Below the pieces are notes generated by a model that saw only the letters and a program-made list of their open reading frames with translations, was not told the origin of the DNA and did not search any database. From assembly GCA_036172245.1 (NCBI GenBank), contig JAYWIR010000002.1:5270001-5334000 (forward strand): a stretch of DNA of 64,000 bases. The letters run 5' to 3'. The translations under genes were made by a program, and so were the position numbers. Shown here piece after piece: positions 3,688 to 64,000 of the stretch (position 1 is its first letter; each line of letters opens with the position of its first letter). This stretch comes from Raillietiella orientalis. Taxonomy: Eukaryota.

Positions 3688-4230
3688 ACCCGCATCGGAG
3701 GGCGTGTGGCTGCTGGGGTCTCCGCGCATGGCACCAGGCGTCGAGGGCTCTGGTACTCGGAAAGAATCAACGGCGAGAGATGAAGGTTGCGTCGTTGGTT
3801 CGATTTCTTCCCGCGAGATGACGCCAATTAGCTTGTCTTCGAGTGCGGCACTGGTAGCGGTTAACATCAGATGCCCCCGATGAGTGGCCGGATTGGGAGT
3901 CAACTCTCCGGAATTCTTCCAGGAAACCGAACCAAGGAATCCGGTTACCTTCAGGGTTCCCCTCCGGTTTTGTGAAGGAGCGGACCTGTCCTTAGCGGAC
4001 CTGTCTTTAGGCTCTGTCTCGTACCATGGAGCCGGTGGATTGATGATGCCTCTCGAGGGTGTTAAGATGAAGTGCACTGCTCCCTTCGGGAAACGTCTTT
4101 TCATGGTTCTCTTCAGAGGAGGAAACAAGAGCAGATCCTTTCCGAATCCTCTTTGGAGGAGAAAAACTGGAGCTGTAACCTCCCAGGGTCCTTTCGGAGA
4201 GCATAAGGAAGAGGATCCCTTCGGAGAAAA
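3688..4230 (+). mobile_element. Long tRNA-headed SINE-like element, old diverged copy (3' part missing)
   Basis: Degenerate head (CCCGCATCGGAGGGCGTGTGGCTGC..TCCGCGCATGGCACCAGGCGTCGAGGG), then CCCGCGAGATGACGC, CCATGGAGC and GGTTCTCTTCAGAGGAGGAAACAAGAGC blocks shared with the other copies. Confidence 0.7.
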
Positions 4231-5149
4231 CCAGGCATTCATCTCGAATGGACTGACGCGCCCTGCAGGGTGACTGAACCGTGTTCGCCTGCTGGTGCCG
4301 CAAAGAATGCCTTGTCGACGTAGAGGGGAGGTCTCCAGGGTGGAAAGGGAGGATACCGGTCCAGAGGAGGTGGTGTCTGCTCGCAAATCCGTCGCATGCT
4401 GCCCCTGAGAGAGCTCGCTGGCAGCGTCGGTCGACGGAGGCAGCTACCGAAGCTCACCAAGATGCCATCCAGCGGCCGCGCGCGCGGGATCTCCCTTCGA
4501 AAGCATCCTTGGATCTGAGGGATCCAACGAGAGGTACGAACCCCTCCGGGTGATTCGCGAACAAAGCTCGCCCGGATCCCGAATGGACCAGAACCCTCCT
4601 TGCATCCCCTTCTCGCAATAGGTTCAGCCCTCAGAGATCAGCTCCTGCTCTCCTTTCTCGACTCTGTCGAGTCCACTCGCTTGCCCTACTTGTGAAGCTC
4701 CTGCACCACCACCTCCCATCTCCTCTTCGAGCGACCTCTCCTTCCCTCTTTTCCTGTCTCTCCGAAAAAAAGGTCTTGGCTCAGACAGCAGCGCGCATTG
4801 CGTGCTCGGTTGCCGGGACACGGGCTCCCTGATGCAGGGCTAGAGGGGAACCCAAGTGGCGCGCCGTGAGGACCCGCCTCCCTCCTCGTGAGACGCTGTG
4901 TCTTCGTCTCATCGACCCAACACGCCCCCTCGATGGTCTTTCAGGCATCCGGAGAGCAGAGCAGGGGAAGGGCTCCCTTGGCCTGCTCCCGGGAAGCAAG
5001 CGCCGCGAACGTCTCGAGATGCTAATTGGGCACGTCAGCCCCCGAGGGGACTGCAAAGCGCCTGAGGGCTTTCATCCGCTCTTCGAAGCATCCGCTGTGC
5101 AATCACGGGGCTGAGATGACACCCCCCCTCATCCCACACGCGGCCGATC

Positions 5150-5620: not shown

Positions 5621-6039
5621 GTGCACAGAACCTTCTATTCCGGAGCCTGAGAATTCGCCTCCCCTCCGCGTGGAGCGCGGTTGCTGGTCCGCAGCTGCAT
5701 TTTTTCCCGGGGGAGGAAGGACGTTTCGACCCACAAGGGCAGGTCCCTAAGAAGTCCGCGACCTTCCTCGATCTAATGGAGAAAAGCGAGAAAGGAGGCT
5801 GCGCTCCTCTTCATCCTCCTCATCCGCTTCGTCAACCTTCCGCCGAGGGCGCTGGAACCAACGGACCGGCGTCCCGGGACTGCCCGCACTTCTTTCTCCA
5901 TCTTGAGACAGTTCCGAGCTACAGTTACCCTCCTCCTCCGCCCCAATCTCTCTTACTACCTCTCTCCTTGTTCAGCTGCTCTCAGCGGGCCGCCTCCTGG
6001 AAGATCAAGCCGCTGCTCCCTTTGGGGAGCAGATCCTAT

Positions 6040-6130
6040 AGAGAAACTGGGAAACGTCCCTTCGGTGGTTCTCTTCGAAGGAGTAACAAGGGGCAGTTCC
6101 CTCTGAAGAGGAAATCCCAGGTGCAGATCG
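6040..6130 (+). mobile_element. Internal fragment of the long SINE-like element
   Basis: GAGAAACTGGGAAACGTCCCTTCGGTGGTTCTCTTCGAAGGAG..GTTCCCTCTGAAGAGGAAAT matches the body at about 11725-11815. Confidence 0.55.
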
Positions 6131-6149
6131 TCAGGAGAGGATTCCAGAA

Positions 6150-6410
6150 CCCAGAGACCCTCTTCGACGACCAGGCTGCCCTCGACCGGGCCCTCTATCG
6201 GAAGTCCTCGCGCTTCCGCGAGCCACAGACGCAGGAATGAAGCCGGGGCTCCAGGAGACGTTCCAAGGAATAAGGACGGCAGGCAGCCTGCCTCCCGGAG
6301 GAGATGGGAGTACCCGGAAGCGCAAGGAGTCTCTCCAGGAGGATGCGCGATTACCCTCAGGAGCGTCTGTCCGCTTCCAGTCCTCCAGGAAGGTTATGGA
6401 GAACTCTCGA
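6150..6410 (+). repeat. Dispersed repeat of a second family, copy 1 (homologous to 8780-9010)
   Basis: Shared blocks GACCGGG..CCGCGAGCCACAGAC..GGAATGAAG..GTTCCAAGGAA..GAGGAGAT..CCCGGAAG..GGAGTCTC..CAGGAGCGTC. Confidence 0.7.
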
Positions 6411-8779: not shown

Positions 8780-9010
8780 GGAACCCAACGACCACCCTGG
8801 ATATGGGTGACCGGGACCTTGATCAGGAAGTCATCCTGCTCCCGCGAGCCACAGACTCGGGAATGAAGAGGCATGGGCTCCGGAAAATGTTCCAAGGAAA
8901 CAAAGACGACAGACCGTCTGCCTTTCAGAGGAGATAGAGTCCCCGGAAGTGAAGGGAGTCTCGCCAAGAGGACGCGCTATGACCCCCAGGAGCGTCGTTT
9001 CTGGAAACGT
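8780..9010 (+). repeat. Dispersed repeat of a second family, copy 2
   Basis: Colinear match to 6150-6410. Confidence 0.7.
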
Positions 9011-10758: not shown

Positions 10759-11409
10759 GCCTGCGTTGGCGGCCGCCCAGCCCCCGCGAGGCGCGGCGCC
10801 ATGCGTCGCGGGTTCGAATGCAGCTTGGGGAAGGGTTGAGTCCCGCCAGAGAAACCGAGAATGCGTCGTGGGTTTCCAGTCCTCCCTCCCCTTAGGATAA
10901 CTCTGGTTGGCCCACGAGTTTCGGATGCAACGCTAGTGGAAGCTGAAAAACCAGATTTCGGGATTGGGACTTGACCCTGCGGAGTCCTTCGCGGTTCTCT
11001 CACTCCGGTTGTGAAAATTGAGCCTTCTTCCCCCTCAGGGATGACCTACATCTCGTACAATGGGGCTGGTTGATACTCCCCTCGTGGGGTTGCCTCCACA
11101 GAATGTTAAGAAGCGCACTGCTCCCTTCAAGGAGGTCCCCTTCAGATAAATGGAGCGTCCCTTTGGGGTTCTCTTCAGAGGAGGCGGGAACAAGGAATGG
11201 ATTCTTTCCGGGTTCCCTTTGGAGAAGAAAATGAGAGGAGACCCCAACAAACCGGGGTTTTCCTCCGGAGAGAATATGGAAGAGGTTCCCTTTCCCATTC
11301 TCTTACGAAGCGCGAGAGAAACGGATTCCCTCCCTCCGGAGCACTTTCTGGATTCCATAGGGTGGTCCCTCTGGGGCAGCCCCTTTAATTTGAAGAGTCA
11401 GCACGCACC
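10759..11409 (+). mobile_element. Long tRNA-headed SINE-like element, first copy of tandem cluster 1
   Basis: Head GCCTGCGTTGGCGGCCG..CCATGCGTCGCGGGTTCGAATG (B-box), shared body, 3' block CTGGATTCCATAGGGTG..TTGAAGAGTCAGCACGCACC. Confidence 0.8.
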
Positions 11410-11436
11410 GCCCGAGGGTGCGTGTTGACTCTTCAA

Positions 11437-12043
11437 GTGGGTTCCGAGTTCCTCCTGCGAGATGACGCTGGTTGGCCTACATTCATTCGGGGTGGCCCTG
11501 GTTGCGGTTCAAACCGGATGCTTCCGATGAGGGCAGTGGGGAATCGACCTCCAGGTCCTTTCAGGAATCAAGAAGTGGGAGTTCTTTCCCTTTGGTTGTG
11601 CAAAGGAGAGCGAACCCCTCAGTGTGGGGGACCTCTCCGGTTCGTTCTGATGGAGTAAGTGTGTGGTCATCTCTCCAGGGAGTGCAGAGAAGCGAGCCGA
11701 TCCCTTCGGGGAACCCCGACTCTCTGAGAAGATTCGGGAGCGTCCCTTCGGGGTTCTCTTCAGAGGAGGAGGAAACAGGAGCGGAGTTCCCTCTGGAGAA
11801 GAAATTCCTACTAGCGGATCCTTTCCGGTTCCCTTTGGGAAAGAAAAATGAAGCGAACTTCCCCGGAGGGTTCCTCCGGAGAGAATAAGGGAGGAGATTC
11901 CCTTCTGGGTTCCTTTCCTTCGGAGACAACCTCGTGATCTCCATTCCGGGGATTCCTCCCCAGGTGTGAGAGGAACAGACTCCGAGCCCTTCCTGGATTC
12001 ATAGGACGGACGTCTCCCGGAGTACCTCCCTATCTTGAAGAAT
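11437..12043 (+). mobile_element. Long SINE-like element, young 5'-truncated copy
   Basis: Nearly identical to 55554-56159 (about 20 differences in about 607 nt, counted by eye). Confidence 0.9.
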
Positions 12044-12050
12044 CATCCTT

Positions 12051-12420
12051 TGTGGTTACGGCTCAGGGCCTCCCTGCTGACTGGGGTAGCCATTACTCCC
12101 GGAGCGATAGTAATCTGGCCGGCTTCGCGTCGAGTCTCTTGGGGTCTCCGGGAGGACAGGGGCGAGGTCACGGAGAAATGAGAAGTATCCTCCCACGAAC
12201 CGGGGGCCCTCCAAAGAGAATAAGAAAGAGGTAGTTCCCTTAGGGGTTCCCTCCGGAGTTAACCAGGGCGAGGGCTCCTTTTGGGGTTCCCCCCAAGCGC
12301 GAGAGGAACGGACTTCTTCCTCCGGAGCCCTTCCTGGATTCATAGAGTGATCCATCCAAGGTTATCCCTCCAACCTGAACAGTCACTCGGGTGAGTAGAA
12401 CAGTGCTGAGGAGCTGTGTG
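12051..12420 (+). mobile_element. Long SINE-like element, internally rearranged third copy of cluster 1
   Basis: Starts TGTGGTTACGG (head motif) and ends with the shared GAGAGGAACGGAC..GAGCCCTTCCTGGATTCATAG..CACTCGGGTGAGTAGAACAGTG block. Confidence 0.65.
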
Positions 12421-12429
12421 ATCCGCCAG

Positions 12430-14550
12430 ACGAACGACGGTTCTTCATTACTTAGCAAGCCAAAAACCTCCCGATGACCCAAAGTCACCTCTCGCTTCCA
12501 TTCACAGGAGGGAGGGGGAAGGTCCCGAGCGAGGCTCCATCACGGAAGGGGCTGCAACGGACAATGGCGCGGAGGCGCAACAGATGGCTGCGATCACGGC
12601 GTCCACCGCTGCCCGCTCCCTCTTCGTGTGAAGAAGCGCTGCAGCAAGTCCGAAGCGGCGTCCCCAGGTGGACGAAACGAATCTCCGCTAAATGCCCTCC
12701 AGTGCACTGCAGTCCAACAGGAGGTGCAGGAACTAGTCCATTGCTCCATGCACCTGGAACAATTCAGGAAGGCAGTTCTCCCTGAAACCAGGAGACTGTG
12801 CAGGTTGCACCGGCAATCCCCATGTCAGAAACCTCAGGACATTCCGTTTCCAACGGTGCGGGAACACGTATGTGTCCGCGCACCGGGAAGGGGTCACAGG
12901 TTCTTCGGGGGCACATCGATCAGGTCGCACTGCCGAAGGCGTTCCTTCTCCGGACCGAGGAGTGGCGCACTGTCCACCCGCTCGCTCGTCTTGCAGCCGT
13001 CAAGGAGTTTCTCGATTCCTGAAGTGTTGAAGGACCACTTCCAGCCCGCCGGCTGGCTGCTGTCATCGTTAACCCTAAGGGCAGGCAGTGCTGCGGCAAG
13101 GAGTGAGATGGCTATCCGAAAACACTGCGTTCAGTCCTGCAGTATATCTCCTTGAAGTTTACTTAAGAGTTTTCGCGGGGAATGAAGTTCCTTTGGGCTC
13201 ACTTCCAGAGTGGTCGGCGGGTGAAACTCGCATTGAGGGTGAAACTCGAACGCACGACCTACTGCATCGACTCAGTTCGGGGTATTCGAACCCGCGACGC
13301 ATGGTACCACCCGCAGAGACCGTAACCACACGGCCTCCAACGCAGGCATTCCAGAGTGGACTCCCAGGACTCCAGAGCCTCCTGCGGCCGGATATCCCAG
13401 TTTTCGGGCAGCAAGAGCCCAAAGGTGGGACTCCAACAATGAGGTGACAGTTGCCTCAGGGGAACTGTCACCCTTGTCATCCCTCCATCCTGTGTCGGCA
13501 GAGCGGAAGCAACAAGGAAAGTTTTTCGCTTCCAGTGCTGCAGGATGTGCAGTTCCTGATGTTACACATTGGGGAGAGGTCCAAACAAATCGTCAGGAAG
13601 CGCGAAAAGTCGGAAGTGTACCTGTACTTCGATCTCCTGGGTAGTAAGGACGCCGAAGGCGGAATCCTGGAGCAGCGCCACCAAGCCTTTCAGCCAGATC
13701 CGGGACCTTGCAACGCCCCAACTGCGCCCGGATCTTGTCTGAATGAAGAGTCAGAGAGAGGAGAGAGAGGAGGGATTTCCTGCTGCTTGCTCGTAGCAGC
13801 GTTGGAATAGGCAGGATGAATAAATAAATAGTCAGAGGGCAGGGATAGGAGACGCTGGAATTGCTTCTCCGCCCCTGCAGCCTCCCACAAGACGTCAGCG
13901 ATCTCCTTGCTGACTTCCCTGTTCAAACGGGAGCACCTGTGAGTCTTCCTCGTGAAAGGGACAGCGGTACTCCCCTCCGGCGGCGTGACAGCTGCAGCTT
14001 CGGGGAGTAGTGAGTCCTCGTTCTGCTGCGGGATGCAGCATGACGTCGCGATCAAGGCGGAAGACGAGAGGCCCTCTGGCGAGGAGGAGCGGCGCAGCAG
14101 TTCAACCGGCGTATCTCGAGTGATGCGGGAGCGCGGAAGCCAGCCGGCGGAGGGTGCCGCGGTTCACCCAACTGGCGGCGGCAGCCATGCAATCGCCCAC
14201 GCGCCTGCCTCACTCCGAAGAGTGAGGCAGGAGATCACAGCGCAAGAGGAGCACCACGTCGTACTGCCTCCCGAGGGGGAGCACGAGTGTGTCCAGACAG
14301 GGGAGAGGGACGAACAGCTCTTTCGGGAAGAGCACCCCCCAAGTTTCAGCCTGCTGGAGCAGTTTCACCTGAATGCAGGGCGTAGCCGCGTTGACCAGCT
14401 CTTTGGAAAGGCATGCACCCCCTCTCAAGAGTTTCCCCACCCCTCTTCTCCGGCTGGCAACTGCCGTTGCTTTCGCATAGAGAAGACAGCGCTGCGACCC
14501 GAAGGTTTGGCAGATATGCAGGTCCACTCCACTTCCCCGTTATCTTGACG
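12430..14550 (-). mobile_element. L1/Tx1-like LINE relic: APE endonuclease plus C-terminal CCHC region, no RT seen
   Basis: LLQQAET, ADVLWEAA..DYLFIHP, PLSD..GPG..LLQDSAF (endonuclease end). Lower part NCSRC..HLLLDCSALEGI..DAASDLLQRFFT..AVIAAICC is homologous to the ORF2 end at 62947-63300. Confidence 0.7.
13214..13348 (-). mobile_element. Head-only (3'-truncated) SINE copy with 11-bp target-site duplication, inserted in a LINE relic
   Basis: Reverse complement GCCTGCGTTGGAGGCCGTGTGGTTACGGTCTCTGCGGGTGGTACCATGCGTCGCGGGTTCGAATACCCC..; flanked by direct repeat TTCCAGAGTGG at 13203-13213 and 13349-13359. Confidence 0.85.
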
Positions 14551-14635: not shown

Positions 14636-14695
14636 CAGCTTTCACGTGATTTCTTTTAGTATGTGGCCGAACTAAAAGAAATCATGTGGAAGCTG
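14636..14695. repeat. 25-bp inverted repeat with 10-nt loop (hairpin)
   Basis: CAGCTTTCACGTGATTTCTTTTAGT / ACTAAAAGAAATCATGTGGAAGCTG; two mismatches. Confidence 0.9.
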
Positions 14696-14869
14696 TCTAT
14701 TACCGGTACACAGCCCAGCGATGTCCGCTTCCGCAGCGGGGGAGAGGGGTTAAGCGAAAGCGAAAGTAAACAAACAAAGGAAAAAAGGCAGGAAAGCTTT
14801 ACTTAGGGTGGGGGGGGGGGATATTCAGGAAGGTATCACTGCTCGCTGCCAGGAGTCCTCCGCATCCTG

Positions 14870-17330
14870 TCCAGGATGCAGGATGCTGGTCAAAATTGTT
14901 CCGGATGTTGCTCGGGCGGGGCCATGTCGTGGAGGCCCTTAAGAAGATTCTCATCCAAAGGATGGCGTCCCTTCCATTTTGGCGTCTTCTTCCTGCGTCC
15001 AGACCTTCATCATTGCGCGAGGACAGCAGAGAACTGCAAGAGACGCGGCTTTAAGCAGTGCGTCAAGTGCGCAAAGAGGCGTTTCAAAATGTTCCTGGGG
15101 CCGCCACCGGGATTCCAAGGGCCTTCGCTAGGCGATCCCAAAGGGGTCTGATGGCAGAATAGTCTGGAAGCAGGTGCAAGAAGGTCTCCTTCTTCCCTCA
15201 TTTGTACCACTCAGCACCCACTCTACCTCGTGTATAGTGATGAAGGCACACTTGGCACGGGATTGCGAGACCAGCAACGTTGACTCCTGTCACTTGACGA
15301 AGAGAGCGCCATCGTTCCAGCTATCTGGAGACCGCTCCACTTCCTCGGAAGGGATCGCGAGCAGCCCTCCTCAGCGTAAAAGTCCTTTGGACAGGATACT
15401 CGGGGTCGCAGCATCCACTAGCTGCCGAGGTGCCCTTTTTGCTGCAATGCATCACGTCACTTCCCACCTTGCTGTCCCTTGCAACCTTTAGGGAGGGCAA
15501 TAGAGTGGTAGTAGGACAGTTGGCCCCACCATGTCCATACCATGAAAACTTGCCGAGAAGTCGGTGAGCAGAGGCAAGGGCACCCTCAGCAGCGGAGGGG
15601 AGGGGAGGAAACAAAATAAAAATGAAAATATAGTTAGAATGACCTTGGGGCAAGGAGGGAAACACGGGGAGGGGTCGTAGCCTGCGGGGGGCTGTCCTGC
15701 GCATCCTCTCGAGGATGCTGGCACTCGAAAGACAGGATGGCCATCCACTGCAGCAGGATATCCCACGGCACATGTGCCATAGCGATGTTCTGGCACTCAA
15801 AAGTCAACCAATGGTAAACACCCTTCGGGCATGTGAAGCACTGCTGCGTACGACACGCAGATGGACATATCTGAAAAGGAAGGATCGCAAGGAGCTTGAA
15901 GGATACACAGACTACTATCCGGTGCCAAAATCCTAGTCGCATCAAGGTCCCATCACCTTTTTCCCTTTCCCTTCCTCTCTTCCCTCAGCCCTTTTCTTCT
16001 CCCACAGGCTTCCCTGAACGGTTTGGCTAACTTTCCCTCCCGCCAGAATGAGAAAATTGTATGCTTATTTATAGATTTTTAAGTATAAAGAGACGTTCCG
16101 GTGCATCCGGGAATACGAAGAGGATGCCGACAATTCCTGCTGCACATTCCTCAGGTTGTGCCATCTCGTCGCCCTCTGCAGACAAAAAAAAAAGATTAGC
16201 TTGAAGTGGATGGCTCCCCTAGAGCAGCCTCCTCCTCTGGCATCGCTTCAGATCGCCACAATCCGCGTAGGCAGCAAAGAGCTGCCAGGGATGAGGTTGG
16301 CAGTAATGAGCTGCGCGCGAAGACGGGATTTCCGTGCGTCCCTGGGGTTGCCGCGTGGAGTCCGAAGACTCGTAGCTGCGGAACATTCCTGCATAGGTCT
16401 CAGGGCAACGCATTTCGAGAGTAGGTGCAGGAGGGATTCGTATGCCCCGCAATCTCTGCAGTTTTGGGGTCCATCTCCTCTTCCCCATCCCCCCCACTCT
16501 CCGGGTTCTAGTGATGTCGGCGGGAGTTTCGTGGTAATAGAGGAAGCGCCAACTCCTGCTGCTTGAGAGGGAGGGTGCAGTTGTTCGGGGACGCTGGAGG
16601 TCTGCCACTCGAGGTCTCCACGGTCGTCCGCTGGGACGTCCTGCAGAAAGATCGAACCGGAACATCCAGATTTAGGCACATCCACATTCAGGAATCCCCC
16701 CCCGGGGGGGGGGGAGATCTTGCGTATTCTGCTCAGGCCGTGAAGGATGCAGAGCCGTGGAACCTATTCTCTTATCCTATTCCCTCTTCTGATTGTTTGC
16801 TGACGCAGCATTCCGGTTGTTGCGGTGGACGATCTTATGCAACGCGCGAGTCCATCACTGGACGAGGGAATGCAGCCCCAGACTGTGCCAGGTACGGGGA
16901 AACGGGAAGCCTTCTTGCAACTGCTGTTGGATCGCGTTGCCCTGAGTGTCCGGGAACGCTCCGTTCAGACCTTGCCACTCCCGACGGGAGATGACAGAGA
17001 GTTCTTGCAGCGCCTCTTCGCGTCCGACTGGATATCGCTTGCAGCTTCCCTTGTGGCCCTGTGCTGCCTCCGTGAGATTGGGCGGCAAGAAGCCGCGCCG
17101 AAGGGGGCCAACCGAAGGGTGAGGTTGTCCCAATCGTCGCCTGCTTCTTCATGAGGAAGGCAACAAGATGGCTACATCTCTGCCAGCAATAAGAGGAAGA
17201 TGGTCAACGTCCTCCAGATGATGCTGAGGACTCCAGGAAAAAATCTGTGGTCCTTTCCCTTCCTGTGATTCCTTCCCCCCAACATTAATTTAAAGTGAAC
17301 TTTTGTTTTTTTTGTGTTTTTATTTACCCC
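14870..17330 (+). mobile_element. L1/Tx1-like LINE relic: ORF1-like part, ORF2 start and ORF2 C-terminus
   Basis: CIVMKAHLARDC (degenerate zinc knuckle, about 15230), SLQIATIRVG (ORF2 start, about 16240), PDCARYGE..QLLLDRVAL..FLQRLF..ISLAASLVALCCLREI (homologous to the 63-kb copy). Confidence 0.65.
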
Positions 17331-17599
17331 TTCCCCCACTCTTCCTGTGCGGACCACATTGGGGAGCTGCCCACGAGAAGCAGCGCCCCCGAGGCATTTC
17401 CCTTCGTACTGGTGCTGTGAAACCACTACGAAGGTTTGTAGGACATTCATTATGAAAATACTAAAAGCACATTGAAATTAGTCACTTGGTTCACCACGAT
17501 GGTCCAGCTTGCCATTGTCCGGTACGGAGACCGGCGGGATTCGCTCCCGCAGAGAAGGGAGAAGGAAAATCACAAAAAAGAAAAAAAGGGGGAGAGGGG

Positions 17600-19458
17600 G
17601 GATGTTTTTTGGGGAGGGGAGTGGAGTGGAGAAGGGATCACAATACACCGGGAGACGTCGTCTGCTACCTGTCCAGGACGCAGACAAGTGGTGTTCATGT
17701 GCTGTCCAGGTGGGACCATCTTGATACACGGTCTTGAAAAAGATCCGCGCGCCCAGCGAATGGCGTCCCTGCCATTCTGTCCTCTTGTCGCATTCCAGGC
17801 TACCACGGTTCCGCGGACGCAGCGGAGAACTGCGAGGGACGCGACTGGCGGCAGAGCGGCAGCACGCATGAAGAGGCGCCGAAAAAAATGTCCTTGCGGA
17901 CGAATACCGGGATTTCTAGAATCAACGACAGACGATCCCAAAGGGTTTGGGACCACTACGAAGGAAGACATTTTTTTACATCATTTTTAGACATTTTTTT
18001 CTTGTAGATTTTTTTTTTTTCACAAGAAACATTCCTGCGTGACCGGATGAAAAATCTCCAAATGCCCGTAGGTGATAGGAGTTGCTGGGAGCAATCCCGC
18101 CCGATGATTAGCTGCGCGGAGGGCACCCTCTCCTCGCAGCGAATCATCGAGAGGCCGGTCACACGCCCTCAGTTAAGTGAGGACCACTCGTTTTCGATCC
18201 ACCTAAGCGGCCCTCGTCCCGCAAGCAACGAACCTCCCGGGTCCAGCTGGGAACGAAGGGGAATTGAGCCGTCATCCGCGGAGCTTTGGGAGAAGCTGAA
18301 CCCCATCGAATGGTCGGAGTACACCCACAGCCTGCCCACAGTGGCATGCGGAAAAGAAACCTCCGCCCCGAAGACCAATCACACAAATACCAGCCTGCAT
18401 TTCGCGGAGGGGGAGGGGGGTTAGGGGTGAGACTCGAATTGTGTGGGCCACCGTGGCCGGAAGGGTTCCCCACATGCGAGAGTCCCGGGCTCACGAAAGT
18501 AGCGCTCTCGAGCTACGTCACCGACGGATCTCTTCTCGGGGAGCTTCCCTCTCCTGTCGAGGTCGAGGAGGCTGGGGACGGCCCCTCTTGCACCCCGGCC
18601 AATCCTGAGGAACGCTCTGCTTGCACCCTCGAGGCTCTTCTCATCCTCACTGGTCTAAAAAATATTGCATTCAACTTGCAGCACCGTGGCTACACATCTA
18701 AGAGGACTCCACGAAGAAACCGCTGCTTTTGGCAGCTGTGACGGCTGGTGGACCCAGCAAACAGCCCCATCTCAAGAAGAAGGACGTCACTCGCACTGCA
18801 GGAACAAACCCGGAAGTCGAAGGGGTTGGACTCTCAGAGTTCATCTTCCCCCCTCCCTCCCTCCGGAATTCTCTAGGAACCATACCTTGAGGGGGAAAAA
18901 TAAATAAATAAACAACATCTGTTGTCCCTTTTCCTTTGCACAACCAGCCAGCCGCCCTCTCTGAGCAGAGCTGCGCGTGCAGGTGCCCCTGCCCATTCCT
19001 TCCTTAGGGAGGACCTTGGTTCTTTCCTTGTCGTGTGTTCATTGTCTTTGTCTTCGATAAACGTTTCGGAGAAGCCGCGGTTGCGAGTTATTGGCAGAGC
19101 TCCATCTGTAGCCACAGTGTGCAGGGTCCCCACGTGGCAAGTTCAATTTTCGCAACACTCTGTCCACCACCCTCCTTAAGTGATCTTTCTACAGCGGTAG
19201 CACCTTGAACCGGGATGCGTTGGGGGAGAGACTCGAAGATCCTGGACTGCCCGTACGACCCCTGCGAATGGACCACCGAGCTGCGTTCGCGGGACATCGG
19301 CCGTTTCGTCGCGCGCCGAAGAGGAGAAACCGAGCCTCTAGCACGCAGAGTGAATCAGACCAGGAGCCATCTTATCAAGTCTTTTTGGATGGAGCTTCGC
19401 GGTACGAATTCGCATTTTCGCAAAAAATTGACCTGGACCACGCTTAAGGGTCCAGTTG
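17600..19458 (+). mobile_element. Decayed Ty3/gypsy pol (RNase H end through integrase C-terminus)
   Basis: In order: IHRETSSA (resembles IEKE.LA), PRAQRMA..TARDA (resembles PRIQRWA..ADAL), CWEQSRPMISCAEG..RII..RPQL..H, PWPEG..SPVEV, and TRSHLI..LRGTNSHFRK (resembles RSY.V..RRN..HLR). Confidence 0.65.
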
Positions 19459-20290
19459 GCCCGCGTTTGTGACCGTGTGGCTGCGATCTCCTCGTGTGGC
19501 ACCAAGCGTTGCGGGTTCGAATCCATACGTGGAGGATCGACGCCGAGAAATAGGTGCGTGCGTCGTGGACTTCAAATTCTACCCGCAGGATGACGCTAGT
19601 CGGCCCATGGGCATTGCGGCACTGGTGGAAATCGGAAACCCCCGGATGCCCCGTTGAGTGGCTGAGATTGGAAGTAGACCTCTATGGTCCTTCCAGGACA
19701 TCAAGGAGCCAGCTCCCTTCGGGATTCCCCTCTGATTGTCCGTTACCATGGAGCTGGTTGATAACCTCTCGAGGGATCGTCTCTCCAGAGTGTCAAGAAG
19801 TGCGCTGCTTCCTTGGGGGAGCGATCCTTCTGAGAAAATGAAGAGAGTCCCTCCCGGGTTCTCTTCCGAGGAGGAAACAAGGAGCGGTTCTCTTGTGGGT
19901 GCCCTCTGGAGAGGAAAATTCCAAGAGCGGATCCTTTCCGGGTTCCTTCCGAAGAACAAACGATCCTTTCCTCTTAATCCCTCCGGAGAGAATCAGGAAG
20001 AGGTTCCCTACAGGGTTGCTTACTGGGTTCCCTCCTAAGAATAAGGGAAGAACGGACTCCTTCTTCCTCAGCCCTTCCTGGATCCATAGGGTGATTCCTA
20101 TGGGGTCAACCCCTAACTAAAAGAATGGCACATACCCTCGGGTAGTGTGGGCAATGTTTGAAAATCTTTGTAAGTTCTCCCTTACTCCTTGAGGAGGTGG
20201 TGAGTTCTTTAGCTCTCCTTGAGAACCAAAAAAAAAATTAAAGAGCCGGAAGGAAAACGGCGAGAACCGAGGAACCCAAAAGGATTCTCA
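19459..20290 (+). mobile_element. Long tRNA-headed SINE-like element, apparently full length (about 830 nt)
   Basis: Head GCCCGCGTTTGTGACCGTGTGGCTGC..GTGGCACCAAGCGTTGCGGGTTCGAATCC, full body, A-rich tract at about 20228-20242, then conserved tail GAAGGAAAACGGCGA..GAACCCAAAAGGATT. Confidence 0.85.
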
Positions 20291-20299
20291 CTACCCGGG

Positions 20300-24063: not shown

Positions 24064-24098
<35 letters not shown>

Positions 24099-25325: not shown

Positions 25326-28300
25326 TCAATGCATCTCGGCTTTGCTCAAGGCTAAGGCCAGCTCATAGTCTTCTTTTTCCTGTTTGAGTCTTTGCTTGTA
25401 TTTTTCTTCTGACAAAATGGATTCCTTCTCAAACCATGACCACCGATCTTCAGAAAAGGAAGATTGGGAAGGTAAACTAGGATTGTTCTGAGAAACAACA
25501 ATGGGAGAGAATGGATCAGAACCCGCAGACTCTTTGTCGTAACCAAGTTTGGTTTCTCCCCAAACTGATGGGCTTGATATGATTTGTTCAGCAAATGGAT
25601 CACCTTTGTCAAAGACATCTTCACACAAATTGTTGTTCAGGGACCATGGATTGCTGCTGCTCATCGTATCACTGAAGAACTATAGAAGAAGAATCAGTGC
25701 TGGAAAGTTGTGAAAGAAAAACAAGGTGGTTAGTAGGCAACAGCAGCAGCAAGTGAAGAACTAGTCCATCCATGGCACCCAAAATGCGGAAGCACCTCCA
25801 CCAAGGGAGCCAGGAGGGCAGAATACATCCCTACCTTATCAAAGTTAGCGAAATCTGCAAAGTTGGTATTAGCATGCTCCTTGGTTGCTTCAGAGCAATG
25901 CAACACTGGAGGAATAGGTACGGGAGGCTTGGAAGCGGTCTTGGAACTTCCAACTTTAGGAGGTGCTGGGCGTGGTGGAGGCTGTTTGGTCTTTTTCGGC
26001 GGTAATGATGGAGTCAAATTACTTTCCACGGTAGGCGCAAAAGGATCAGCCCCAAACAAATCACCCATCTGATTTGATAAGAATCACATTTTTGTGAACA
26101 TAACTGACCTGATCTGTGTTACTACTTGGCGTAGCTTTTGTACCACTAGAAGGCAAGAATGGATCTGGCTGATCTACATTAAAGGTGAATTCGATGCAGC
26201 ACTTGATTTAAAAACTTACCAGTTTGTGATACACTGCCAGAAAACGGTTCTCGATTCCTACTTTCCTAAAAACAGAATATTATCTGAATGCTCAAGAAAG
26301 AAAAAAAAAAAAATTACCACATGGTTTGCAGCATCTCTTTCAAATGCATTTGTCAGAGATTCATTATCTGCTTTCCTGAATTCCAAGTCATTCTAATTTC
26401 TCATATTTAGCTAAATACATGACAGCAGTAAACTACCTCAGCTGCTGGCGTTTCAGATGAATTGATTTGTGATTCAAAATCCTCCCACACTGGGTGGATA
26501 TCGCGAAGTGCTGTCTCTCCTAACGAAGATGCATCACCACTTGAAATAGCTGCATCATAAAGCTGTATAGTTTCTTCCAATTGCTGATAGCAATCCTGAA
26601 GCTCCATGATGCGAGATTTAGTCTAATGAAATGGACAAACTCGAGACCTTTTGGTTAAATTAAAGTCGTACCTGAGAGCTTTCTAACTGAGTTTGAGCAC
26701 ATTTCTGTGTTAGATTCTCAAGGAAGGTCTTGGCAGAAACTACTTGTGTTTCCAAACGAGATTCCTCTTCTTTAAGCTCATCCAACTCTGCTTGTTTACG
26801 GTGCAATTCTTCTTGCTGTTCCTGTACGCATTTTTCTTGTTCCGTTACTTGCTGTTGCAATGAATCCACCTGATTGAAGAATTTCTGGGTCAAAATTTTC
26901 TTACAAAAACAACCAAGCAAACGGCAAACAAAGTAAAACACAACAAAGCTTTCTTTCAAAGGCATTTGAATGTTAGCATTACCTTTTGCTGCAAATCATG
27001 CACCTGGAGACTTAGCTCATTCAGTTGACTTTTCAAGGCAGTGCACTAGCAAAGGAAAAAAAACAAAAGCATACATGCAGGAAATAAAGCTGCAACTGGA
27101 AGGAACCTAGTGCTAATACTGCTACATACCTGAGTATCTAGTTCATCCAGATACTTTTGTGCCTCGCCCTTTTGTGCCTGCAGTTGCTTCACTGTGAGCA
27201 TTAATGTATCTACCTCTCCCTGAACACTCAAAATTAATTTCTTATTCTAAGGTTCTCTTTTTCTGACTTGCAAATTTTTCAGTTCCAAAGCTTTAAGACG
27301 CAACTCGGCTTCTGCTTTGATCACACTTTGCTCCAATTGGGTTTTCTCCAGTGTAATCTCCTCTACTTCCTTAGCCAATGTCTGAAGCTCGGGATTGGAA
27401 AACTTGGCAGTGCTAAGTTCCTGGGCAAAAGATAGGTAGCGAATTTAGCGAAAATGCAGCTAAAAACTTCTCGAAGTGAATTCAAAGAAATGCGCAGTCA
27501 ATTCTGAAGATGCATTTATATAATACTATATTCCAAATTAAAGTATCACACATGTACCACTGAACACACATTAATACAAATTATACAAAGAAAATGTGAA
27601 ACAAAAATACGAATCCTTATCATTTTTAAAGTCCATTAACATTTGATCCGTAAATACCAATCATTATGCAAAATTATTGAATTGTGAGTAATTGCTGAAA
27701 CCATGGAGGCAAAAATAACATAAGAAATTAAAACACTCACTAATAAATCGAAGAGAAATTTTTTTTTCAAATCCAGTTCAAGAAATACTATCTCATTTTT
27801 GTGTTTTATACATTTACAAAACCATCAAATTTAACTAGATCTTTTGAATACATTTTGAATACATTTCTCTGAAGGAACTGCTGATAAATTAACTTTTTTC
27901 ATATAACAAAACATGATTATATCAATGAGTCAATGTCTCATCACACAATCATTAGTCAGCTATGGTTTGCATGAATTTTAAAATAAAACTGCACAAGATT
28001 CTTTCATAGCAATTCTGACTATGATTAAATACTGGTAAAATATTGATGAAAAATTCTTCACGTACTTATTAAGAATAAAAGCAAATTTAATCCAAGATCA
28101 GCAACTTTTCTAAAGTCAATAGTCAACTGCAAAGAACTTTACAAAGAAACAATCACAAAATGTGACGAAAAATTTCGCAAACACATTCCTTGAGCAGATT
28201 CATTTTAAAGTTTGCAATGCATACATGTAAGGAATGTATTCATAGTTCCTTCAGAACTCGGGGCTTTTTAGAAAGCAATTGTGAGATGTGGAAACAAATA

Positions 28301-30948
28301 CATGATGTGTCATTTAAGTAAGTTTCTTTAATAGCTTCTTTATCAGTATACTATGTCTGAGTGCAAAATACAACCTGAAACGTACATATTTATATGCCTA
28401 CTTACTGGAGTTGGAAACATTCTGGAGCGAAATGAGGGAGGAATCATTTCAGGAAGAAGAGAAGTTGGAGGATCATTTCCTTTTTTTTTTTGATTTATCA
28501 GCCATAATGCTAAGGCAAATTGCTCCTGATTCAATTTGCCTGTCTGTGGAATATCACATAGGTTCCTATATTTAATTAGAGAATGCTCAGTGAAAAATAC
28601 TCACCAGATATGTGCTAGTACTGATTGTGAGAGACCAGATTGGATGAACAAATCCCTAATTTCAGTTCCATTCACAAAACCATCTTGGTCAGTGTCTGTT
28701 TGCATGAACAGTATATCATAATTAATCTTTTCATCACTGCTGACTACCCAAGGAAGGGAAAACTATAATCAGGCTGCACTCAATAGAAAACAGTAGTCAT
28801 AATGAGCTCACCTCTGGCTGAGTTTTGGAATGTGAATCAGGAGAAACATGAACTCCATTCACAATTAAACTGGAAGAGCTTACAGTTAAAGGAAGTGGAG
28901 GAATAGGTGGTGGTACTGCAGGATGAGAGACTGATGGCAAAGATGATGAGACTGATGTGATTGCAGTTGACAAAGCAGGCATGGAAGAAGGCATTACGTT
29001 TCGTTTACTGAGTGGCACCATTTCAAGTGGAAGAACATCAGGAAGGGGTATGCTATCCAGTGCTTTGTACACTAAATGCATTCCCTAAAATCAAACACGA
29101 AAAAAGTCACTTTGATGTTAACTGAATTCATCTAACCAGAATAAACTCCTCTCGATCCAAGGATCCATCTTTATCGATGTCAGCAAGGTCCCATATTTTA
29201 CTAAGAGTTTCTAAACTTAAATGTGAGTTTAGCATAACAGGTCGCACCTTTTTAAAACCAAGATTAAATGTGCAGTATGATTCCTTACCTTGGAACCATG
29301 GAGTTTTCCTTGCTCTGGGAGCAAAGATTCAAAGAGCTGCTCATATTTTATCCTTTCATTTGGTGCAATGGGCCATAGAGATTTAGTTGGTGTATTTACA
29401 TAAGAACCATCTTGCACTGGAATCACTTCACCCTGTCCAAAAACACATGAAAAAATATTGCTATCCGACATAATTGAAACAAGGTTCCAAAATGCAAATT
29501 AAATGTGAACAATAATCAAAAACTTTATGTACGAAAATAAAGTTTTAGTTTTAAGGTATCATTGGAAAACAGTTTCACAGCTTTTTGCTTGCATTCTTAT
29601 AAGCTATAAATTGCTCAATAATGCAGATTGCATTTAATTATATGATGGCAGTAAAATTTTATGTACCAAAGTATAATTATTAATCATACATCTTCTTCCA
29701 CAACTGAAAATAACTTAGCAATACTTGTGGAGAATAAACAACGGAGGTAATGAATTAATCTGATGCACATTAAAAATGTTAGCTACAATGATATGCTCAC
29801 ACATAGCTTTTAATTCAAAATGATGCCTAAAGGTGTTGCAAAATGCAAAGCAGAAATCTGACAACAAAAGCTATCTTACAAGTGGAATCAAAGGACTGAA
29901 TTAAGCTTAAGGTGAATGTTTCATTGTTGTATCCATTATAGCTTCCAAAACAGGTATTCTGATTTTCACTACTTTACTAAAAGATGCACATTTTTAATCT
30001 GGAAGTCCATAGAGCAAAGATGGTCTTTTAAGCAAAAATGAACCAGCATAATTTTTTAACGCTTTCATTAATTTCCATTTTTTTAAAATCCAATTTGTTA
30101 ACAAATGACTCCTATTGCTGATGTAAGTTTTCAGGATAATCCAATGAAACACAATTACCAGGAATGCAGGACCTATATCCTCCCTTATGTTTTGGAGACT
30201 GATTGGTTTTCCATTTTGGTAAAATGCTATCAGTTTCAAAGCAATAAAAAGTCCTTTTCTATCTAACCATCCTTTTTGGTCAGAATCTGCCAAATCCCAT
30301 ATCTTGAAAACAGAGGGGATCATTAACATTCAAAGTAACAAACGAAAATTGTACGAACAGCCATGCAACTGAACACAACAAATAAAGAATCATAAAAACA
30401 CGACAATTGGAATTATTTTGTGATTTATTCGTCACAAATGAAGAATTAGCAAAAAAAGGTACCTACTTTACTTAGGACTGCATCATTAAGTCCTGATTTT
30501 TTAAGGAATACTGCTGCATCACGAGCGGATATTTTTCCTGTGCCAGAACTTAGCTGCAAACAAATTGTTCAACGTCTTATACTTTGATTTGCCTAAGAGC
30601 CATACCTGTTTGTAATACGCCTCATACTGCCTTAGATTAATTCCCGCAATCTGAAACCGAAATAACGAAGATAAATTCCAAAGTTAAATTCTGACTACAC
30701 AGTTTTTATGAAACCACACTGAAAACTTCGAAACAACATCGGAACACAGGCAATTGATTATTAATGAGCAACTTTGGCATTTTTTGTTTCAATAAACATG
30801 TAGGTGGATACTAGGTATTTTTAAACATTTAGAACTGCGTACATATTGTAAACATACATTAATGAAATAGATCTTGCATTTTTTTTTTTTCATCACATAC
30901 AAATAAGAATAAAAACAACACCTGAGCATCCGAAAGTAGAGAAGCCAT
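25326..30948 (-). CDS. Eps15: Epidermal growth factor receptor substrate 15 (Eps15/EPS15L1-like) endocytic adaptor, 19 coding exons, about 870 aa
   Basis: Phase-consistent GT-AG exon chain built by hand (5'->3' on minus): 30948-30922, 30650-30606, 30553-30467, 30302-30159, 29432-29289, 29247-29137, 29084-28812, 28762-28605, 28565-28406, 27420-27268, 27219-27130, 27045-26983, 26869-26672, 26622-26437, 26392-26318, 26265-26220, 26173-26109, 26068-25835, 25679-25326. It encodes three EH domains ([56 protein letters not shown]), a long coiled coil, DPF motifs, a Pro-rich [15 protein letters not shown] and a terminal UIM ([17 protein letters not shown]). Confidence 0.95.
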
Positions 30949-54651: not shown

Positions 54652-55330
54652 GCCCGCCTCGGCGGCCTCGTGGCTGCGGCTTCGTGCGAGGCGCCTCATC
54701 AGCCGTCGCGGGTTCGAATCCCTCCCGGGGAGGGTCGACGCCGAGAAGTCGTGGGTTGAGTCCTGGGTTTCCGAGTCCCCTCCCCCCGCAGGATAAGCCG
54801 GTTGGCTCACGAGCTCCAGGCTAGGCGGCGAATCCGAAAACTACCGGGTTTCCCCGTCGACTTGTCTTCGGTCTAGGAAGATGACCCAGGAATCAAGGAG
54901 TCCTTCGGGTTTCCCCTCCGTTTTGGAAATGGGACCGTGCCATGGAGCTGCTCGATACTCCCCCTCGGACAGTCGCCTCTTCAGAGTGTCCGAAACGCGC
55001 CACTCCCTTAGGGGGGCGGCCCTTCAGAGAAAATGGGGAGCGTCCGTTCGGAGCTCTCTTCCGAGGGAGAGGGAACAGGGAGAGGATCCTTTATGCGTTC
55101 CCTTCGAAGAAGAAAATGAGGAGCGACCACCTCCAGGGGGTCCCTCCAGAAAGAGAGAGGAAAAAGAGATTCCCTTCGGGGTTCCCTCTCAAGCGTAAGG
55201 GGAAAGGACTCCAGCCTCCTGAGCCTTCCTGGATTCATAGGGTGATCCCTCCAGGCTATCCCCTATAACTTGAAGAAGAGTAGACACGCACCCTAGGGTG
55301 GAGCGGACAGTGTCGAAGAGCTTCGTGATG
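54652..55330 (+). mobile_element. Long tRNA-headed SINE-like element, first copy of tandem cluster 2
   Basis: Head GCCCGCCTCGGCGGCCTCGTGGCTGCGG..GTCGCGGGTTCGAATCCC, shared body and 3' block CCTTCCTGGATTCATAGGGTG..CACGCACCCTAGGGTG. Confidence 0.85.
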
Positions 55331-55454
55331 GCTTCGTGAGCTTTCGTGGATGCAGCGTGGTTCCAGGCTGCATCCACGGAAGAAGAAATCCACGATGGCA
55401 GAGCAAAAGTGGGGGAGGGATCGCAATGCCAGACCGGCCCGCTGACACCTCCTC

Positions 55455-56336
55455 GACCTCGTCGGAGGCTTTGTAGTTACGGTGGTCTCTGCGCGTGGCA
55501 CCACCAAGTGTCGCGGGGTTCGAATACTCCGACAGAAATCGACTCAGTACGTCGTGGGTTCCGAATCCCTCCTGCGAGATGACGCTGGTTGGCCTACATT
55601 CATTCGGGGTGGCCCTGGTTGCGGTTCAAACCGGATGCTTCCGATGAGGGCAGTGGGGAATCGACCTCCAGGTCCCTTCAGGAATCAAGAAGTGGGAGTT
55701 CTTTCCCTTTGGTTGTGCAAAGGAGAGCGAACCCCTCAGTGTGGGGGACCTCTCCGGTTCGTTCTGATGGAGTAAGTGTGTGGTCATCTCTCCAGGGAGT
55801 GCAGAGAAGCGAGCCGATCACTTCGGGGAACCCCGACTCTCTGAGAAGATTCGGGAGCGTCCCTTCGGGGTTCTCTTCAGAGGAGGAGGAAACAGGAGCG
55901 GAGTTCCCTCTGGAGAAGAAATTCCTACTAGCGGATCCTTTCCGGTTTCCTTTGGCGAAGAAAAATGAAGCGAACTTCCCCGGAGGGTTCCTCCGGAGAG
56001 AATAAGGAAGGAGATTCCCTTCTGGGTTCCTTTCCTTCGGAGACAACCTCGTGATCTCCATTCCGGGAATTCCTCCCTAGGCGTGAGAGGAACAAACTCC
56101 GAGCCCTTTCTGGATTCATAGGACGGAGCCCTCCCGAGGTACCCCCTATCTTGAAGAATTACACGCACCCTCGGGTGGCTTGGAACGTGTGAAAGAGCTG
56201 CGTGAGCCGGCTCCAGGGGCGAGGCGGCTCTTGAGACATTGAGCGAATTAAAAACAAAGAAAGCACGAAAAAAAAAATAAAAAAGCTGGAAGGAAAACGG
56301 CGAAGACAGAAAAAGAAGAACCCATAGGATTGGCAC
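55455..56336 (+). mobile_element. Long tRNA-headed SINE-like element, young full-length copy (about 880 nt)
   Basis: Head with GGGGTTCGAATAC B-box, second B-box-like GTGGGTTCCGAATCCC, body about 97% identical to 11437-12043, A-rich tract, conserved tail, immediately followed by T6 (56337-56342). Confidence 0.88.
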
Positions 56337-56349
56337 TTTTTTCACAAAC

Positions 56350-56700
56350 CTCTCCTTCATTCTCTCCCTCCGGAGAGAATGAAGGAGAGGAGGTTCCCTT
56401 CGGGGTTCCTTTCCTCCTAAGCGTAAGAGGAACGGACTCCTTCCTCCGAACCCCTCCCCGCACTCATGGGGTGGTCCCATTTCGGGATGACTCCCTATAA
56501 CTGGAGGGGTGACATGCATCCTCGTGTGGCATGGACAGTTAAGAGACTTTGTGATTCCCCTCCTCCCCCAAGGAGAGGAACAGTTCGTCAGCACTTAGCG
56601 AGACAATAAAGAAAAAAAACAAAAAAGCTGAAAGGGAAGCAGCGAAAACTGGAGGAGAACCCCAAAGGATTGGCCTAGGATGATTTCCATCATCTTAGGC
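56350..56700 (+). mobile_element. 3' part of a long SINE-like element, third unit of cluster 2
   Basis: CCTCCGGAGAGAATGAAGG..GTTCCCTTCGGGGTTCC..AAGCGTAAGAGGAACGGACTCC, A-rich tract, tail GAACCCCAAAGGATTGGC. Confidence 0.75.
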
Positions 56701-57329
56701 CAACAGTGCCAACCCCCTCCCCTACTTGAGATCGCTACTGGCCTTTTAATGGATCTCGCGCTTCCCTAAATCTCTGCATTCCGAGCGCACGCGATGCGTT
56801 TGGAGAACGGTCCACACGCTGCCGCTCTCCATACCAGAGCGGATCCTGCAGAGCAGCTCCCGATGATGCAGCCGCGCATTGATGCTTATTACCGTGTCGA
56901 GGAAGCAGACACGGGAGGCGACAGCGTTTGCGAATTTTCCATAAGATGGGACGGAAGACCAGATGAGAAAGGTCCCAAGTGGGTTAGGTTGAGGATTCCC
57001 GGAAACGAAGTTGGGAGATCCCAAAGATGGGCGTGCGTGCCTTGCAGGAGGGAACGTTTCGCGTCCCGGCGCCCATCTTCCAGTAACAAAGGATGGCGTG
57101 CGCCTCAGTGAACACGGGGAAGCGAACCACCGCTCGCTCGTCAGCGCGGAAGTCGGAACGAAAGGATCCTCTAGGAGTCACGGACCCGCCTTCTCAAGGC
57201 GTGGGTCTGTCTCGTATTGGCCCACGTCTACAGACGCGGTCCCACAGATGCGAGGGAAGCTTCAAGCAGTTGTGAGGTGGAGGTTTCCTTCCTCCACCCC
57301 ATCCCTCTTTCCCTTAGAGTGACAGCACT

Positions 57330-62697: not shown

Positions 62698-64000
62698 TTT
62701 TTCGTTCTTTTTTTTTGTTGTTTATCACCCGGGTGCGCCGGGGCGTTTATTAAAAACTATCCGGGAACAGAGTTCCTGGACAAAGGAAAAACAAGAGACG
62801 AAGGGGTGGGATCCCCGACACGCAGGTCGGTATGCCGAAAGTCCGGAACGGGAGGGAGGGGACCACAAATACACTACTATAAAAAAATAAAAATAAAAAT
62901 ATGGAGGGCAGGGGACAGGGGTCTTTGGTTCGGCCGTTCCTTCCTTTCAAAACCGGCGATGGATGCCGGCGATCTCTCTCCTCACGTCCTCTGGCAGATG
63001 GGCCCACTCGGCAGCCGACGACATGTTCGCGCTGGCTGATCCGGTGGGCTGACGAAGGATGGCCAGCTTCTCCAACTCTCGGTGGGCCTTGTCGATGGCG
63101 CGGGTGCAACACACGGTTGCAACGACAGCACCCAAAGACAGGCCGCCTGGCGTGAAAAAGCGGCGCATCAAGTCCCTCGCGGTGTCCCTCTGGTGCAGGA
63201 GAGCTGAGGCCAGCCTCCGCCAAAGTCCTAGGAGGGCACCGCAGTCCAGGAGCAGGTGCGGGAGCGTTTCCACTTCCCCGCACCGCTTACAGTTTGGGGA
63301 GACAACTCCCCCGGAAACACGGTTCGTTCACTGGTCGGAGTGAAAACCCCAATGCACCAGCATGATGACGTCCTGCTTCCACGAAAAAGGGAACACAGAA
63401 GTGTTCAAACAGGAGGGAAGGACCACAAGTTCTTCGGGGGACACACTCAAGTGTTCACTCCACCGAAGGAGTCCCTTCGGGATGTGGCGAGGCGTGGCGG
63501 CGTCTGCCAGCTCGCAAGTCCTCCAGCCGCCAATGGGTCGTGTTGTTCCTGCGATGGTGCAGGCAACCTCCCATCTCGCCGGTTCGCAGCTGTCATCTCT
63601 TGCCCTGAGGGCTGACAGCGCGTCGGCGAGGGGCGTGATGGCCAGGCGAGTCCACTTCTCCTGGCTGTTGCACACCTCATCCACCGTGCAGTACGGGGAG
63701 AGGTGAGCGCAACGGAGTTCCAGGAGTGAAACATCCTGGTGCTTTGCCCAGCCATGCAACGGTTCCTGCCGCCAGGATTCAAAGTTCGTTGGGCGGCAGG
63801 AGATCCATGCGTGGGCTACCAGGAGCCGGTAGAGGGGTTTCAACGGGAAACCGAAGCTTCTCGTGGCGCGCTCCGTGTGCGGCCGCAGCGACAGAAGTCC
63901 ATCGCTGCCGGTGCAGCGCCGCAGAAGCAGGCGCGCGGGAGCGCACCACGGAGTGGACCAAAGGTTGGCGCACAGGGCCAACATCCGAAGCTGCACCTGC
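62698..64000 (-). mobile_element. 3' end of an L1/Tx1-like LINE (ORF2 C-terminus with CCHC zinc finger, 3' UTR, poly(A) signal, A-rich tail); runs off the window
   Basis: PNCKRCGEVETLPHLLLDC (zf-RVT-type CCHC), stop at 62947, AATAAA on minus at 62746-62751, A-rich tail at about 62698-62722; at least one in-frame stop or frameshift near 63330. Confidence 0.85.

Follow-up and report, generated by a model that had tools for sequence, protein, structure and literature searches.

The window analysed here, 64,000 nt of Raillietiella orientalis DNA (assembly GCA_036172245.1, contig JAYWIR010000002.1, positions 5,270,001-5,334,000 of the forward strand), contains an AT-rich stretch of 29 kb (36-45% GC) flanked by two GC-rich repeat islands (55-61% GC). 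The AT-rich part harbours exons of an Eps15-like endocytosis gene at 25326-30329 on the minus strand. The exon at 30162-30314 encodes an EH domain that matches EH1 of mouse Eps15 (PDB 1qjt, E=3.6e-9) and was confirmed with both a protein atlas and the PDB, and by reading we could assign further exons with a coiled coil (26660-26995), a DPF-rich segment (25730-26083) and a UIM-like C-terminal part (25326-25679). Many long T or A runs are found in the intronic stretch (e.g. at 39286, 46074 and 49662), and at 24064-24098 a T17 adjoins an A18. ARAGORN found no tRNA gene in the window. The left GC-rich island contains two unclassified repeat pairs, 6184-6367 / 8809-8996 (78% identity) and 14691-15145 / 17506-17945 (63%), in a region with no Pfam match. 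In addition the islands hold all ten pieces of the SINE-like family described in the following, and no piece of it was found in the AT-rich genic part.

When the stretch 55455-56342 was compared with the window by blastn, 11 matches besides the self-match were obtained, and three rounds of nhmmer gave 21 matches, which correspond to ten sense-strand pieces and 11 weaker reverse-strand matches inside those same pieces. The reverse-strand matches arise because the hairpin-prone modules of the body make it resemble its own reverse complement. Together the family covers 5,276 nt (about 8% of the window), and nine of its ten pieces lie on the plus strand:

3690-4237, plus strand: old copy with a decayed head, 3'-truncated (blastn, nhmmer)
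5977-6165, plus strand: old internal fragment, headless (nhmmer)
10761-11436, plus strand: old copy with the head present, 3'-truncated (nhmmer)
11437-12045, plus strand: second young piece, headless, 96.9% identical to the full-length young copy, missing 99 nt at the 5' end and ~180 nt at the 3' end
12171-12471, plus strand: old 5'-truncated piece, headless (blastn, nhmmer)
13233-13345, minus strand: head-only piece (model positions 1-127); a decayed LINE fragment comes after it in the same orientation
19459-20292, plus strand: old solitary full-length copy (834 nt) in which all parts from head and body to A-rich tract and tail are present, and T4 is absent
54654-55448, plus strand: old copy that immediately precedes the young one, probably full-length, with head and body clear
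55455-56336, plus strand: youngest full-length copy, 882 nt (blastn, nhmmer)
56347-56675, plus strand: old 5'-truncated copy with a complete tail, starting 10 nt behind the young copy

The original prediction spoke of about ten copies or fragments sharing a head. The ten pieces do form one family, but the head is present in only six of them, the 5' part being missing from the other four. All six heads start at one nucleotide (GCCYGCGT...), the 80-100 nt upstream of them are mutually unrelated, and the exact 12-mer GCGGGTTCGAAT occurs four times in the window, every time within a head. At the other end, the three copies with an A-rich tract and tail stop at one position (...GGATTGGCAC at 56336, ...GGATTCTCAC at 20291 and ...GGATTGGC at 56675), and the DNA downstream is again unrelated. 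The base after the young copy, T 56337, is common to the other two 3' ends and may be the element's own. A search of the window with a tail HMM gave no tails beyond these three; it missed the copy at 54654-55448, whose final ~70 nt are of doubtful homology to the family tail. Self-comparison of the window revealed no homology beyond the units themselves. With fixed ends and unrelated flanks the SINE-like unit is therefore discrete and 795-882 nt in length, with neither poly(A) nor a simple repeat at its 3' terminus.

The copies are of very unequal divergence. Between 55554-56159 and 11437-12043 we counted 19 differences in 607 aligned columns (~3%), and the remaining copy pairs are about 60-66% identical (differences of 35-40%). 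Length varies among the copies by gain or loss of whole ~40-nt modules and of an 18-nt block in the head, and the module-sized indels are not multiples of three. A DNA sequencing run (X1) that contains a small share of the family's words yielded 75 contig pieces of the family, mostly diverged, and the family is therefore abundant outside the window. One contig of 244 nt from this run is identical to the window over 55399-55642 and spans the 5' junction of the young copy; an empty insertion site for that copy was not found in the run. A degenerate 19-nt family motif hit 10 loci in metagenomes and no viral contigs, and the family HMM matched none of the 10. Collectively, the family is a real, discrete and interspersed non-coding repeat with a fixed first and a fixed last nucleotide and one recent copy pair.

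The young full-length copy, and the DNA immediately behind it, can be divided as follows:

55466-55476, plus strand: A-box-like motif AGGCTTTGTAG, element nt 12-22
55517-55527, plus strand: B box GGTTCGAATAC, agreeing with the consensus GGTTCGANNCC at 10 of 11 positions
55557-55568, plus strand: second, degenerate B-box-like motif GGTTCCGAATCC, part of a T-arm segment that is duplicated internally over ~24 nt
55569-56246, plus strand: GC-rich non-coding body of short hairpin-prone modules (CCCTTCGGGG-type), by whole ~40-nt units of which the copies differ
56247-56284, plus strand: A-rich tract with the hexamers ATTAAA and AATAAA, such a hexamer being present in all three tails
56285-56336, plus strand: specific 3' tail ending in GGATTGGCAC, with a small hairpin at 56285-56301 (GCTG-N9-CGGC), from the tail comparison
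56337-56342, plus strand: T6 directly behind the copy, a possible Pol III terminator, located in the flank and not common to the other copies

The boxes of a Pol III promoter have the consensus sequences TRGCNNAGTGG (A box) and GGTTCGANNCC (B box). Compared with the former, the A-box-like motif agrees at 8 of 11 positions in the young copy, where it is most degenerate, and at 9 of 11 in older copies, where it reads AGGCCGTGTGG (e.g. in 13345-13233 on the minus strand). The sequence GGTTCGAAT has been retained in five of the six heads despite the 35-40% divergence among copies. The best-kept head, 13345-13233 (minus strand), carries AGGCCGTGTGG from nt 12 and GGTTCGAAT from nt 56, which gives a spacing of 44 nt and a B box that agrees at 10 of 11 positions. 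The spacing from A box to B box in tRNA genes is 44 nt as well, and an arrangement of this kind would place the first base of the repeat at the expected Pol III start. In the young copy the two motifs are 51 nt apart, and across the heads the B box starts between nt 56 and nt 63. A D-arm-like stem of 4 bp (GCCG/CGGT around TGTGGTTA) can be read in old heads. The second B-box-like motif, placed about 45 nt behind the first in the original prediction, does exist, but it follows at 40 nt in the young copy (55517 and 55557) and at ~60 nt in older copies, which by reading have an extra ~18 nt between the two motifs.

Whether measured with Rfam or with ARAGORN, the likeness of the head to tRNA is slight. 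No Rfam family, the tRNA clan CL00001 included, was matched at the gathering score. When short stretches were searched with E values up to 10, four of five heads (the 3690 head being left out) gave no match to the tRNA clan, and the fifth (54655-54732) matched tRNA-Sec with 15.3 bits (E=0.99), the gathering score being 47. ARAGORN at its default settings recognised none of the six heads as a tRNA, and relaxed settings led to inconsistent isotypes. Assignment to tRNA genes or pseudogenes was rejected on these values. Lack of significant tRNA similarity in the head had been named beforehand as an outcome that would count against the prediction, and formally this is the outcome obtained; the likeness of the head to tRNA-His is putative. 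Nor is the head conserved any better than the body, with block identities of 0.74-0.80 in the head vs 0.65-0.90 elsewhere. Judged by its boxes, the head appears promoter-like and seems to resemble part of a tRNA gene, and its tRNA origin is putative.

Behind the long body, the A-rich tract and the further conserved tail stood up well to comparison: the tract and a tail of ~55 nt are found in three copies with one common end. The tail hairpin has 4 bp (GCYG-N9-CRGC), one pair of which is UG, CG or UA across the three copies, with no double-sided change. The hexamers AATAAA/ATTAAA in the A-rich tract also fit Pol II processing. No regular tandem array was detected in the element by TRF. The epithet "structured" could not be upheld for the putative RNA as a whole, which folds no better than dinucleotide shuffles (global z-scores, from 20 shuffles per strand, of -0.79 in sense and -0.16 in antisense orientation). 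Open reading frames overlapping the copies matched no Pfam family, and a scan of 12 ORFs gave nothing. In two larger Pfam scans, 150 ORFs of 116-409 aa, the longest in the window, gave weak sub-threshold matches only, including one to zf-RVT with E=0.019, and 150 of 273 ORFs from the islands (60-115 aa, the 123 shortest of 60-76 aa being excluded) gave nothing at E<=0.01. The SINE-like family is without recognisable coding capacity.

As predicted, neither full-length copy contains TTTT and the young one runs at once into a T6: no T4 is present in 55455-56337 or in 19459-20292, and the T6 occupies 56337-56342. For quantification of the T-run deficit, the numbers of T4+ runs were compared with those in dinucleotide shuffles. 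The young copy has 0 vs 3.1 expected (1% of shuffles are this low), the copy at 19459-20292 has 0 vs 2.4 expected (7% of shuffles this low), and all ten pieces together have 5 vs 17.5 expected, the copies being related and not independent. Other island DNA contains about 3 such runs per kb. In the bodies alone (4,577 nt) we counted 15 A4+ runs and 5 T4+ runs, and the young body has one A4+ run and no T4+ run, so that a strand-specific avoidance of TTTT is not evident in this copy. The deficit of TTTT across copies is accordingly real, as had been anticipated, but it is modest and only partly strand-specific. Of the whole family, the young full-length copy, which has no T4 and is followed by a T6, lends itself best to testing. 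Typical SINE RNAs are 100-500 nt in length according to PMC8210359, and the putative 880-nt RNA of the young copy would be well above that range.

Target-site duplications were expected from the original prediction and were sought in the window around the copies with both ends preserved. None of the three has one, the best shared words being 4-5 nt long (p 0.45-0.98). A LINE sharing the SINE-like tail was not found in the window either. The only pointer to a LINE among the 300 ORFs of the two large Pfam scans is the sub-threshold zf-RVT match at 62950-63327 on the minus strand. It belongs to an L1-like LINE 3' end at 62715-63999 (minus strand), which runs off the window and shows a CCHC motif of zf-RVT type (E=0.019, sub-threshold), a stop codon at 62950, a ~240-nt UTR that contains AATAAA, and, close to 62715, an A-rich end. 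Fragments related to this LINE are located at 12564-13126 and at about 14240-14401. Its 3' UTR, with AATAAA and poly(A), is unlike the SINE-like body.

Both young pieces are found next to older members of the family. The young full-length copy lies 6 nt past the probable end of one old copy and 10 nt before a 5'-truncated old copy, and the young fragment 11437-12045 lies directly behind the 3'-truncated old copy 10761-11436. This is suggestive of a target preference, although two cases prove nothing. Downstream of the young fragment, the 125 nt at 12046-12170 have no significant likeness to the copies, the best being 13 of 14 nt shared with the head (p ~0.23).

We consider it probable that the family consists of oversized SINE-like, non-autonomous non-LTR retroposons. 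On this reading Pol III would pass through the T4-poor body and halt at the first T run of the flank, which for 55455-56336 would be the T6. A LINE reverse transcriptase would then recognise the specific 3' tail (the A-rich tract plus ~55 nt, with its small hairpin) and not a terminal poly(A), and cDNA synthesis would start from a fixed base and frequently stop short of the 5' end. The extra length of the unit may have come from ~40-nt hairpin modules added to the body. As it stands, the family is a well-delimited repeat of an ordinary kind with an unusual length, and it is relevant to the annotation of the GC-rich repeat islands of this genome.

The length of the unit, which had been called unusual, is so by the figures of SINEBase: according to the description of that database, its consensus sequences measure 75-662 nt without the tail, with a mean of 253 nt (PMC3531059), and 795-882 nt exceeds every one of them. 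Compared with a typical SINE, its length is three- to fourfold. In the same text a SINE is defined as generally <700 bp and operationally <1 kb in length, interspersed and non-tandem (PMC3531059). With its 795-882 nt, its unrelated flanks and no array in TRF, the family falls within the operational definition and outside the general wording (PMC3531059). SINEBase further asks for at least 100 copies and for a head that shares, across 60 nt or more, no less than 60% identity with a tRNA, 5S or 7SL RNA, and it takes A and B boxes as an indication and not as proof (PMC3531059). Families in SINEBase follow the same modular scheme of head, body and tail as the one described here (PMC3531059). A search of the literature, the entries of Dfam, Repbase and SINEBase themselves lying outside it, returned no SINE family of at least 800 nt.

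Two known systems invite closer comparison. UnaSINE1 and UnaL2 of eel, a SINE/LINE pair of the "stringent type" with a common 3' tail (Ohshima 2013, PMC3747384), likewise combine head, body and tail with a head of A/B-box type, and they resemble our family in the conserved 3' tail with a small stem-loop, the fixed 3' end and the 5'-truncated copies. Unlike that pair as described there (PMC3747384), the family here has neither short tandem repeats nor poly(A) at its 3' terminus, its tail-sharing partner LINE was not found in the window, and its tRNA origin is putative. The T+ SINEs of mammals (B2, Dip and Ves) have AATAAA, a Pol III terminator and an A-rich tail (PMC8466645). All three tails here likewise have AATAAA or ATTAAA within an A-rich 3' tract, but the hexamers of our family are followed by a specific tail of ~55 nt, the element contains no terminator of its own, and a terminal A-tail is missing. 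Assignment to the T+ class of B2/Dip/Ves type was rejected on this ground, since the hexamers are not closely followed by a terminator and a terminal A-tail.

The alternative that deserves most attention is that the units are derived from a LINE 3' end and carry an idle head, i.e. that a long 3' UTR of an L1/Tx1-like LINE once acquired a tRNA-like piece at its 5' side and that the RNA is made by Pol II or by read-through rather than by Pol III. Hexamers of polyadenylation-signal type in all three A-rich tracts, a unit longer than typical Pol III products, a head with no tRNA score that is conserved no better than the body, and the presence of four headless pieces all agree with such a derivation. 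Yet the head is found on six of the ten pieces, each time starting from one nucleotide, no headless piece in the window extends upstream into recognisable LINE coding sequence, and the only LINE 3' end of the window (62715-63999, minus strand) has a ~240-nt UTR of its own that is unlike the body. The element also ends 55 nt past the AATAAA and has no terminal poly(A). Taken together these observations leave the LINE derivation somewhat unlikely. If the body were indeed a complete LINE 3' UTR, the family would be a clear case of a SINE made from a Pol III head and a LINE tail.

Far less probable are three further readings, and a fourth was rejected. Copies generated by segmental or tandem duplication and gene conversion in the repeat islands, with no mobility involved, would agree with the nine of ten pieces on the plus strand, with the two similar arrays of old, young and old units, and with the 97% fragment 11437-12045, which is truncated on both sides and lacks a surrounding duplication. 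We regard this as very unlikely, given the unrelated flanks at six heads and three tails and the lack of homology outside the units in the self-comparison. It is still harder to see the copies as genes for a functional structured non-coding RNA: the hairpin-rich body with loops of CUUCGG type and the one tail hairpin with three pair types point in that direction, but the folding z-scores (-0.79 and -0.16 for the sense and antisense strands vs dinucleotide shuffles), the lack of any Rfam family at the gathering score, and the decay of the copies to 60-65% identity with module-sized indels speak against it. Helitrons start with 5' TC, end in CTRR after a hairpin, and insert between A and T; the element opens with GCC and closes with GGCAC(T), and a Helitron was rejected on these ends. 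An equally small chance as for RNA genes is left for solo LTRs or a non-autonomous LTR element bearing tRNA-like sequence, of the Helenus/Ajax type. The unit has an LTR-like length and a purine-rich tract near its 3' end, units stand head to tail at 54654-56675 and 10761-12471, and tRNA-bearing LTR elements have a published precedent (PMC10886601). The ends are GCC...CAC and not TG...CA, however, with no 4-6-bp target duplication, and the 5'-truncated copies are typical of LINE-type insertion. Moreover, the ages of adjacent units differ by an order of magnitude (3% vs 35-40%), and they are therefore not LTR pairs. Without TG...CA, a duplication or paired LTRs of equal age, the assignment to LTR elements or solo LTRs was rejected.

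Returning to the SINE-like retroposon, a bolder version of it would make the copy 55455-56336 a live source gene. Pol III would transcribe this unit of ~0.88 kb from its own first base to the T6 of the flank, and a target-specific LINE lineage would mobilise it by way of its specific non-poly(A) tail. On the sequence as it stands we think this unlikely. If it were true, this would be the longest SINE known and a natural Pol III transcript of nearly a kilobase, and the occurrence of young pieces next to older family copies could be explained as well. Should the Pol III reading be right in general, SINEs would extend beyond the sizes accepted so far (75-662 nt in SINEBase), and the family would offer a natural test of how long a Pol III RNA can become when T runs are avoided.

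The borders of the copies show some further peculiarities. The two arrays in which an old unit, a young unit and an old 5'-truncated unit follow each other, 10761-12471 and 54654-56675, are 44 kb apart, and between them the old members are 63-66% and the young members 97% alike. Three short, near-perfect palindromes are located exactly at copy borders. The one at 11392-11436, with arms of 20 nt and one mismatch (by reading), lies at the 3'-truncated end of the old copy beside the young fragment; the one at 56349-56390, with arms of 19 nt that are 100% complementary, lies where the old copy that follows the young one is truncated on its 5' side; and the one at 56670-56703, with arms of 15 nt and one mismatch, straddles the 3' end of a copy. 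The second of these is the best non-homopolymer hairpin of the window and accounts for weak Rfam microRNA matches at 56327-56402. The border palindromes have small native palindromes at their centres and resemble fold-back (snap-back) junctions, and their degree of perfection seems at odds with how old the old copies appear to be. Another repeated word is found at the breakpoint of the head-only copy, where the 12-nt sequence CGAGTTTCACCC occurs twice, 6 nt apart, at 13219-13248 on the minus strand (0.03 expected by chance). This breakpoint coincides with the second B-box-like motif, and the decayed LINE fragment (12564-13126) follows ~100 nt later in the same orientation.
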